Source: Clostridia bacterium (GTDB lineage Bacteria > Bacillota > Clostridia > TANB77 > UBA1234). From it: a DNA stretch of 64,000 nucleotides. Location: positions 2,364 through 66,363 of the forward strand of contig CAAFRB010000058.1 in NCBI GenBank assembly GCA_900765095.1, read 5' to 3'. The notes under the pieces are model-generated. The model did not search any database. It had not been told where the DNA came from and saw only the letters and a program-made list of their open reading frames with translations. Shown piece by piece: positions 44,932 to 45,100 of this stretch (positions within the stretch are counted from its first letter, which is position 1; every line of letters begins with the position of its first letter). The position numbers were made by a program, and so were the translations under genes.

Positions 44932-45100
44932 CAAGAAAGAATAAAAATCTTCGATTTTCATTTTTTCGACCGTCGAGAGTTTTTCGACTGAAAAGGAGAA
45001 AATCTCTCGCATAAATTAAAGTTTTTTATGCAATGCAATAGGAAAGATAATTAATACATAAAAGGTTTCAAATTTGTTATGCTCCTATTGTATAAAAAAG
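44932..45100 (+). repeat. full-length repeat copy A+B+C (reference copy)
   Basis: caagaaagaataaaaatcttcgattttcattttttcgaccgtcgagagtttttcgactgaaaaggagaaaatctctcgcataaattaaagttttttatgcaatgcaataggaaag..ctcctattgtataaaaaag. Confidence 0.85.

Follow-up and report, generated by a model that had tools for sequence, protein, structure and literature searches.

Terminator-anchored insertion of a 155-nt three-hairpin repeat in gut Clostridia suggests a non-autonomous mobile element

Why should the same small palindromic sequence recur a dozen times between the genes of a single 64-kb stretch of bacterial DNA, and always facing the same way relative to transcription? The stretch in question, hereafter the window, comprises 64,000 nt of contig CAAFRB010000058.1 from a Clostridia bacterium, and an earlier note made from its letters alone had described in it a repeat built from three palindromic modules, A, B and C, whose order in messenger RNA (mRNA) sense is denoted C'-B'-A'. 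We find that discrete units of this repeat are inserted directly after the T-run of intrinsic terminators (plus one purine), with fixed polarity and without target-site duplication, and that the kind of terminator is immaterial, those of mRNAs, tRNAs, 6S RNA, T-box leaders and S-adenosylmethionine (SAM)-riboswitch attenuators all being used. Copies are near-identical across several related species, and their module content turns over between strains. The unit is probably a non-autonomous, terminator-homing mobile DNA element, 154-155 nt in length, that a putative enzyme would move in trans.

The repeat family itself is beyond reasonable doubt. All 12 copies listed in the earlier note were recovered by direct reading, blastn and nhmmer, and an independent repeat search of the window returned the same copy groups. 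The four longest copies align with each other at 85-88% identity over ~157-168 nt, with E-values down to 1e-45, and two diagnostic patterns, a 23-nt degenerate C-loop pattern and a B pattern, match the window 6 and 4 times, respectively, where 100 shuffles lead one to expect 0.00 of each. With nhmmer profiles built from the window copies, the census of the window amounts to ten A, eight B and eight C modules in 12 clusters, or one per 5.3 kb; together with the loci obtained by a genome scan, we count 41 A, 58 B and 76 C modules, of which 26 lie in the window, and 13 of the 41 A modules are identical across 38 nt. Similarity among copies is therefore far above what AT-rich intergenic DNA would produce, the outcome against which the earlier note had asked that the family be checked. 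A genome G+C content of ~31%, and the frequency with which short-read contigs of element-bearing metagenome-assembled genomes (MAGs) end inside the repeat, could have hinted at chance likeness or an assembly artefact; that reading is refuted, with next to no probability left to it, by the E-values and pattern counts and by the presence of identical loci and elements in independent assemblies from ENA, NCBI, JGI and Logan. Every listed copy indeed lies outside open reading frames (ORFs) of at least 80 aa, and one weak stretch resembling A/B, at 32445-32554, runs into the 3' end of a histidine-kinase gene. The listing needs adjustment at two places: a C-loop fragment at 15022-15063 had been missed, and the "degenerate fragment" reported at 24770-24830 is too decayed for nhmmer to score.

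Read in mRNA sense, the canonical element is one 154-155-nt unit. It opens with hairpin C', in which a 5' arm, 5'-T(G/A)(T/C)AATAGGAAAG, and a 3' arm, CTTTCCTATT..., enclose a 36-nt loop, and continues through an A7 run and the linker CTTTAATTT into hairpin B' (ATGCGAGAG...CTCTCG) and hairpin A' (GAAAGAATGAAAATC...GATTTTCATCTTTCTTG-3'). A loose end pattern applied to the window and to loci from four MAG assemblies identified 14 complete units of 152-155 nt with common ends, T(G/A)(T/C)AATAGG... and ...CATCTTTCTT(G/A), and with few base differences between species-level MAGs. At its insertion site the unit forms part of an extended C palindrome, T7-(G/A)T(G/A)(T/C)AATAGGAAAG ... CTTTCCTATT..-A7, in which the T-run of the terminator doubles as the T7 arm. 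The full unit contains no ORF. A small-peptide reading of a 17-codon ATG-CGA-GAG... frame in B'A' was rejected, as the frame has no ribosome-binding site (RBS) and is shifted by indels; an element-borne promoter was likewise discarded, the C' loop providing only 9-of-12 consensus matches that are at background level and inconsistent between copies. Full units (for example at 26040-26075, - strand) also carry GTCGAAA and GACGAAA motifs at the B'/A' junction, ~16 nt apart in mRNA sense, which match at 6 of 7 bases what we take to be the Spo0A box, TGTCGAA, and the host is spore-forming; in hundreds of copies per genome, such Spo0A-like motifs could matter or be a coincidence.

Folding of a full copy predicts the three hairpins on either strand, with z-scores of -6.6 and -6.5 relative to shuffles. 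Compensatory covariation in module C, previously pointed out for one copy, proves more extensive, with four fully compensated stem variants (TGTAAT/ATTACA, TGCAAT/ATTGCA, TACAAT/ATTGTA and TATAAT/ATTATA). A 54-sequence alignment of the C stem contains 30 cells changed on both sides, as compared to 5.2 +/- 2.1 in shuffles, none of 500 of which reach 30, and paired cells make up 95.8% in the true register and 37-55% in slid controls; these counts include related copies and correspond to at least two or three independent events. Compensated pairs are also found in module A (A-T to C-G, at one position) and are absent from module B, and the C loop is nearly invariant across copies and species. Stem mismatches of the G.T and A.C types number 16 and 17 in A, 12 and 20 in B, and 40 and 29 in C, without strand preference. 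Given that both strands fold equally and lack a G.T/A.C bias, an RNA structure is indistinguishable here from a DNA palindrome or a single-stranded DNA hairpin.

The sequence that precedes each copy is what defines the family's location. With every copy turned to mRNA sense, about 45 of the 52 C' copies for which enough flank is available come directly after a distinct, G+C-containing host hairpin and a T-run, and the element begins directly after that T-run plus one purine. A hairpin of -8 kcal/mol or lower is predicted within the 40 nt 5' of the T-run for 79% of C'-adjacent runs and for 6.4% of controls, the latter being 1025 other T-runs of at least 6 nt in the same DNA (Mann-Whitney p = 3.5e-25). 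Three further C' copies follow an A' and represent the second units of tandem arrays, and in copies that lack C' it is B' (ATGCGAGAG) that starts at the terminator T-run (window positions 15126, 32803 and 42079). The terminators used belong to protein genes, to tRNA genes (loci L020, L033, L041, L055 and L063), to 6S RNA (L033), to a T-box leader (L013) and to the SAM riboswitch upstream of metK, and in several cases the unit stops within 0-20 nt of the following gene's RBS. By an approximate count that combines a terminator scan with manual reading, ~8 of roughly 15 intergenic terminator-like sites in the window are occupied, and the occupied ones carry 150-320 nt of extra hairpins. The earlier observation that orientation tracks local transcription can thus be refined, as the flank folds and the T-run test show a polarity that is fixed relative to the terminator, and it is for this reason that orientation follows transcription; the three or four inverted copies follow + strand terminators with no change in replication direction, the GC skew being monotonic. 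Since attenuators within leaders and terminator-to-RBS gaps of only ~20 nt are hit as well, we infer that the hairpin and T-tract are what insertion is mechanistically aimed at, rather than features merely retained by a selection filter.

Among strains that share the window's S1, HU or thioredoxin proteins unchanged, filled and empty alleles are found at the same sites, a presence/absence polymorphism between near-identical strains. At the HU terminator, one locus (L199) reads T7-A followed directly by TACAATAGG, an older C copy, and another (L195) carries exactly one unit more, running from TGTAATAGG to CATCTTTCTTG between the T7-A and the same TACAATAGG. At the histidine-kinase terminator, the window-type allele (L201) has T6-A followed by TGCGAGAA, and the alternative allele (L200) again holds exactly one additional unit, from TACAATAGG to CATCTTTCTTG, between T6-A and TACGAGAA; in L200, L202 and L204 a complete extra unit thus separates the T-run from the B'A' of window site 32811..32892. 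No target-site duplication was found in three junction comparisons, with an ambiguity of at most 1 nt. Sites devoid of any copy also occur: in a sister species (L057) the T7 of the HU terminator is directly followed by the RBS, and the metK leader of L211, at 79% MetK identity, is empty.

Module content is equally labile. At the rplQ site, two loci (L001 and L007) lack 87 nt comprising linker, B' and A' and so have C' in place of C'B'A', with flanks 100% identical over 1.5 kb and with the last two bases of the unit retained after the deletion. The KAP-NTPase site contains A, B'A', C', C'B' or C'B'A'+B'A' depending on the strain, the HU site C'B', C', C'B'A'+C or C with a flipped loop, and at 42083..42253 strains vary in the presence of some 85 nt. 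A 78-nt deletion between tandem B' copies sets L195 and L196 apart, and in L198 the arms of two C copies have recombined (C'/C). In the HU-to-S4 interval, comparison of L199 (3852-3935) with L198 (3848-3924) shows the 36-nt C loop reversed between the same arms and flanks, which suggests that the inverted C arms mediate loop flipping. Many copies are truncated and some arrays are tandem (for example ABCABC). The subsets of modules described earlier are therefore probably not modules that move independently but mostly internal deletions or recombinants of one composite unit, and the evidence points to a single 154-155-nt composite unit as the inserting entity. Tandem arrays would form because of repeated insertion at the same T-run, and the partial copies (C', B'A', A, C'A') would derive from the composite unit by deletion or recombination between repeated arms.

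Within the window, three copies are complete. The one highlighted in the earlier note spans 44933..45104 on the - strand (A 44933-44968, B 44971-45014, C 45026-45104) and lies between the rplQ (L17) terminator, mapped by the terminator scan to 45099..45124 (-) with its T-run continuing straight into C', and a TTGATA-17-TATAAT promoter-like site of an S1-domain gene. A second full C'-B'-A' unit, at 26020..26186 (-), lies in the 5' leader of metK, with the riboswitch terminator on one side and the start codon (ATG at 25994) on the other; the SAM aptamer is at 26214-26314 (-; Rfam RF00162, 71.2 bits), and its terminator hairpin, found in the scan at 26182-26208 (-), provides the T-run that is the insertion point. 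The third, a full canonical 155-nt unit at 63595..63760 (-; A 63595-63630, B 63633-63675, C 63680-63760), follows the terminator of the upstream gene (hairpin 63758-63790) and precedes an S10 leader. The latter corresponds to a G+C-rich island at 63340-63590 upstream of rpsJ, with the repeat unit immediately upstream, whose best match (63435-63519, -) is to the S10-Clostridia ribosomal leader RF03136 at 33.8 bits, slightly short of the gathering score (35.1); the island is probably a true S10 leader, if a divergent one.

The remaining copies are partial. On the - strand, C'-B' with an A' stub covers 9030..9186, as located by nhmmer and by reading (in + strand coordinates, A remnant 9038-9049, B 9054-9096, C 9102-9184), between the HU terminator and the RBS of an S4-domain gene, the T-run of that terminator (9187..9215, -; upstream-flank fold -16.1 kcal/mol) abutting C'. 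A decayed tandem at 15022..15129 (-) has its B' (15088-15129) directly after a terminator T9, half an A' at 15063-15084, and the C' loop fragment at 15022-15063 abutting the comF RBS. A B'-A' copy at 19039..19119 (-; A 19039-19074, B 19078-19119) ends 10 nt 5' of the RBS of the recD2 N-terminal ORF. C'-A' without B' is found at 23954..24058 (-), 8 nt 5' of the acyl-CoA ligase RBS, and is preceded by a T-run but not by a clear hairpin; it lies downstream of a TetR-type operator-like palindrome, TTGATTATAATTTGATAATCAA, at 24075-24110 between the genes for a TetR/FadR-type regulator and the ligase, an arrangement that would place the copy in the ligase 5' untranslated region (UTR). Solo A modules, for which no strand is assigned, are a 36-nt palindrome at 12258..12294, 24 nt past the KAP-NTPase stop codon, and one at 19372..19407, 4 nt past the stop codon of ORF 19412-19939. 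On the + strand, B'-A' at 32811..32892 directly follows a + strand terminator (hairpin ~32765-32800, T-run end ~32809), and C' with a linker/B'/A' remnant at 35549..35660 (C' 35549-35626) directly follows the murI terminator (hairpin 35509-35550). The cluster previously given as a plus-orientation copy at 42091-42256 has its B and C parts inverted as well and resolves into two decayed tandem units at 42083..42253 (+), with partial B', A', degenerate C' and then A after the terminator of a VirD4-like gene; this last A also reads as a terminator-like hairpin for the convergent galE.

Beyond the window, the family is narrowly distributed. The host is a low-G+C (~31%) spore-former, as judged from SpoVT, and the window encodes among others rpoB, the S10-spc-alpha ribosomal block, metK behind its SAM riboswitch, HU and recD2. 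Proteins identical to those of the window occur in MAGs such as GCA_905211875.1 and on many contigs of human-gut metagenomes, from the Hadza and from other cohorts, and the matching species representative is "Clostridia bacterium HGM13616", of which one locus (L071) is 97.7% identical to 63655-64000. A scan of 185,579 species-representative genomes with the C-loop pattern found true elements, with A and B modules alongside, in five MAGs only (CAADXZ01, CAVHNT01, CAKTDK01, CAKPAA01 and CAKPEF01), which are related and are labelled uncultured or unclassified Clostridia, Eubacteriales or "bacterium"; the claim of a lineage-specific, non-coding, multi-copy hairpin repeat thus holds, with a range of a few related gut Clostridia MAG species. 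Pattern matches in Bacteroidota, archaea and other groups were isolated seed matches and were set aside. Closer relatives were reached through MetK homologues and their syntenic 21-kb loci around metK. In these the number of clusters declines with MetK identity, from 7 in the window species (100%) to 3-4, partly decayed, at 92%, a single one at 86% and none at 79%; at 81-83% there is just one C', old and diverged. The metK leaders of relatives are ~150 nt shorter or contain remnants only (old C' in L209 and L210, an 8-nt C' footprint in L206, a B'-like stub in L207). As a negative control, loci of RecD2 homologues (at most 52% identity, 1.03 Mb) contain no element copies. Judging from these loci, the family is old in the clade and still active in at least two species. 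Phage and plasmid origins were also considered and rejected, since 14 IMG/VR pattern matches span the 31-nt seed only, without true copies, and blastn found no match in INPHARED or in PLSDB plasmids. For the element, Rfam likewise returned no family at gathering scores, and permissive E-values added only sub-threshold miRNA-hairpin noise.

Comparison with described repeats places the family without identifying it. REP/BIME and REPIN-RAYT sequences are extragenic palindromes present in hundreds of copies, with mosaic hairpins and no target duplication; individual REPs, G+C-rich and 20-40 nt long, have a conserved 5' tetranucleotide and mostly come as inverted doublets, and their movement in trans is attributed to a single-copy HUH tyrosine transposase. 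The present family is similarly hairpin-built, extragenic, multi-copy and free of duplications, and its module A is a 36-nt palindrome that also occurs solo. Unlike REPs, it combines three different AT-rich hairpins in fixed order with a conserved 36-nt loop and an exact terminator placement, and the inserting entity is the three-hairpin unit; no RAYT gene turned up in the window or in ~45 loci, which are MAG fragments and were not the object of an aimed whole-genome search. Miniature elements derived from IS200/IS605 have end hairpins in place of inverted repeats, make no duplication and insert 3' of a short motif in fixed orientation. These features are shared, with T-run plus purine as the motif, but the target is here a homopolymer T-run next to a hairpin and not a defined tetra- or pentanucleotide, the left hairpin begins at the first base of the unit, and no Y1 transposase was found in the window or loci. 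Like a classical MITE, or miniature inverted-repeat transposable element, the unit is small (152-155 nt), non-coding, multi-copy and insertion-polymorphic; unlike such DDE-derived elements, it shows no target-site duplication in the three junction comparisons. Its two ends bear a weak AGGAAAG / CTTTCTT resemblance to each other, and no partner insertion sequence appears in the window or the ~45 loci.

The pneumococcal BOX repeats (boxA-boxB-boxC) are small, non-coding, modular Firmicute repeats with stable predicted hairpins, co-transcribed with their neighbours, lineage-restricted and seen next to riboswitch-type leaders, for which terminal inverted repeats, target-site duplications and a coding-strand bias of ~61% have been reported (PMC3049150). 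The likeness, judged from the published description, extends to three module types, variable content, hairpins and lineage restriction, but the unit described here shows no target-site duplications and at best weak terminal inverted repeats, and it is anchored at terminator T-runs where BOX merely mirrors the coding-strand bias. SPRITE repeats are AT-rich, ~150 nt long, bounded by AAAA/TTTT ends and enriched near gene 3' ends, with no target duplication established; they are terminator-like themselves, with an 18-bp duplex and then a U-rich tract, and number ~30 copies per genome (PMC3049150). Our family shares their composition, length, AAAA/TTTT ends, 3'-end location and absence of target duplication, and differs in being appended to a separate host terminator, with an A-run after C', and in its density of 12 clusters in 64 kb. 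A parallel in placement is offered by class C (IIC) group II introns, which insert at terminator motifs (PMC4424553) and are likewise found after intrinsic terminators in one orientation. Such introns are, however, ribozymes that measure from several hundred to ~2000 nt and mostly come with a reverse transcriptase, as compared to the 155 nt of the present unit; an intron remnant, considered for the common niche, was rejected for this size and for the lack of any Rfam group II match at gathering score or at E-values up to 5. In a 2024 review of prokaryotic MITEs (PMC10969869), terminators figure solely as structures that MITEs may imitate and not as sites of insertion, and our literature searches brought up neither a terminator-homing miniature element nor the present family.

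What the units do to host transcripts bears on how they are to be interpreted. That the element acts as a general terminator, one of the roles suggested earlier, is contradicted by its sequence: no U-tract comes after C' or B', the former leading into A7 and the latter into AGGGACGAAAG, and a U-rich 3' arm is present in A' alone. A consensus terminator scan flagged the host terminators beside the units and not C' or B', and among the modules only the solo A at 42219-42253 qualified, being terminator-like on both strands; module A alone may thus be a weak or bidirectional terminator. In the metK leader, ~30 nt separate the full unit from the start codon and contain no promoter-like site, so metK must be transcribed through the unit, which consequently is not an efficient terminator. 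We infer that read-through transcripts, and some 5' UTRs, gain three stable hairpins from the unit, and from one strain to another the units probably change read-through, RNA stability or translation. The window also encodes, at 37595-38767 (-), an RNase E/G-family protein with an S1 domain, a candidate processor of hairpin-rich read-through transcripts.

Two other explanations share part of this evidence. The hairpins could serve the host, being kept after terminators by selection with copy-number change as a by-product; possible roles are those of a 3'-end or read-through RNA stabilizer, an insulator, a back-up or bidirectional terminator in the case of module A, or a binding site for nucleoid or RNA-binding proteins, as proposed for REP/BIME. 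A host function would account for the compensatory changes that maintain C-stem pairing, the almost unchanged C loop, the orientation fixed relative to transcription and the presence of a copy at about half of the window's intergenic terminators, as well as for the bidirectional terminator-like character of module A at 42219-42253, its position as sole hairpin after the KAP-NTPase gene in window-type strains and the persistence of a diverged C' in the metK leader at 81-83% MetK identity. It nevertheless seems unlikely when set against the variation in presence and module content between strains with identical flanking genes, the empty orthologous sites of sister species and the many truncated copies; a selected RNA would be expected to show a G.U versus A.C strand bias, which is absent, the A-rich sequence after C' and B' and the metK-leader location argue against efficient termination, and loop conservation is equally explained by the recent spread of a master copy. 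Alternatively, the units could spread without a transposase, by template switching or gene conversion between terminators seeded by T-run/A-run microhomology and hairpin stalling, with natural transformation and recombination carrying alleles between strains. The host does encode ComF, the KAP-to-SpoVT alleles resemble imported divergent haplotypes, junctions always fall at a homopolymer run, neither target-site duplications nor a transposase were found, and rearrangements through repeat homology are directly visible in the 78-nt B' deletion, the L198 recombinant and the flipped C loop of L199. To this mechanism we give little credence, as a homopolymer of 6-9 nt is very weak homology, the 3' junction has no consistent microhomology (CTTTCTTG abuts unrelated sequences), and neither the restriction to hairpin-following T-runs nor the nucleotide-exact unit ends at independent sites and in independent species are explained by it.

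The preferred interpretation of a terminator-homing element moved in trans has several observations to contend with, which count against it. None of the window ORFs examined encodes a transposase, integrase or reverse transcriptase; for transposases and integrases this agrees with the earlier note and extends to NCBIfam or Pfam searches of 40 window ORFs. An all-against-all comparison of 524 ORFs from ~45 element-bearing loci recovered inter-species orthologues and no repeated transposase-like ORF. Terminal inverted repeats are at best weak (AGGAAAG / CTTTCTT), and the C-stem compensation together with the highly conserved loop could also signify a selected host function. The 52 C' copies were gathered by the C-loop pattern from fragmented MAGs, and some of them are orthologous between two close species, so that not all represent independent events; the direction of the filled/empty differences, insertion as opposed to precise loss, is moreover itself deduced.

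If the unit is indeed moved in trans with the terminator motif as its target, the duplication-free enzyme might, speculatively, be a single-strand HUH (IS200/IS605/RAYT-like) or an IS110-like activity. The A7 beside C' can base-pair with the T-run of the target, giving a complete 21-bp helix once the unit is in place, and could act as a target-selecting guide that positions cleavage and joining, a pairing comparable in principle to the guide-target pairing of IS200/IS605 or to the exon-binding/intron-binding site (EBS-IBS) pairing of group II introns. Terminators might present their sense strand as single-stranded DNA in the bubbles of paused transcription and, where genes are co-oriented, on the lagging-strand template, a state that would suit a single-strand transposase. 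We propose only tentatively, as a possibility, that these steps make up an undescribed transposition system, in which a trans-acting enzyme would read hairpin and T-tract, probably as single-stranded DNA, and carry out precise, A7-guided and duplication-free insertion of 155 nt.

Several features of the genomic neighbourhood deserve mention in their own right. Window ORFs that were checked are housekeeping or conjugation-like, and most of the remaining ones were named by Pfam through syntenic loci. RecD2 is encoded as two adjacent ORFs (16838-19016, -), a 527-aa N-terminal part and a 188-aa part with SH3_13 and UvrD_C_2 domains; the same split (529 aa plus 143-177 aa) recurs in L206-L211, relatives down to 79% MetK identity, and is thus a conserved arrangement and not a frameshift of the window. 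The L17 ORF (45155-45679, -) is 174 aa long, with the L17 model covering residues 94-174 only, a ~90-residue N-terminal extension and a partial match to the NCBIfam "sunset domain variant" of L17. Between adk and map, at 50016-51167 (-), lies an unusual passenger of the ribosomal spc/alpha block, an ORF of 383 aa that contains a Thy1 domain (ThyX-type thymidylate synthase) and has a 72%-identical partial homologue in L063. Conjugation-like genes beside the ribosomal block, for a VirD4/TraG-like coupling protein (39461-42040, +) and a Replic_Relax-like protein (43377-44318, -), are kept in all strains examined and may be the remnant of an integrated element. In L209 and L210, at 81-83% MetK identity, two same-orientation DDE_Tnp_1 (IS4-type) transposase genes (1574-3274 and 6453-8189) bracket ~3 kb between an OGG gene and rpsT in a composite-transposon-like arrangement that is absent from the window, and we saw no link between them and the hairpin repeat.

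Overall, the present family belongs to the known class of bacterial interspersed hairpin repeats. Small interspersed repeats such as REP, BOX, Correia and RUP are usually placed loosely somewhere between genes; what distinguishes this family is its nucleotide-exact, orientation-locked placement after the terminators of every gene class, its high occupancy and its rapid turnover between strains. Apart from group IIC introns, few elements have an insertion point that is exact and defined by structure. A7-guided terminator homing, if true, would make the unit a miniature DNA (or RNA-mediated) counterpart of group IIC intron targeting. For the lineage itself, the element explains the breaks of assemblies in intergenic regions and offers a hypervariable strain marker, and where units sit in regulatory leaders (SAM riboswitch/metK, T-box) or against ribosome-binding sites, host expression is at stake. 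Terminators would provide a recognizable landing pad for a 155-nt element, which implies an enzyme or guide that merits a search and might be reused for targeted insertion.

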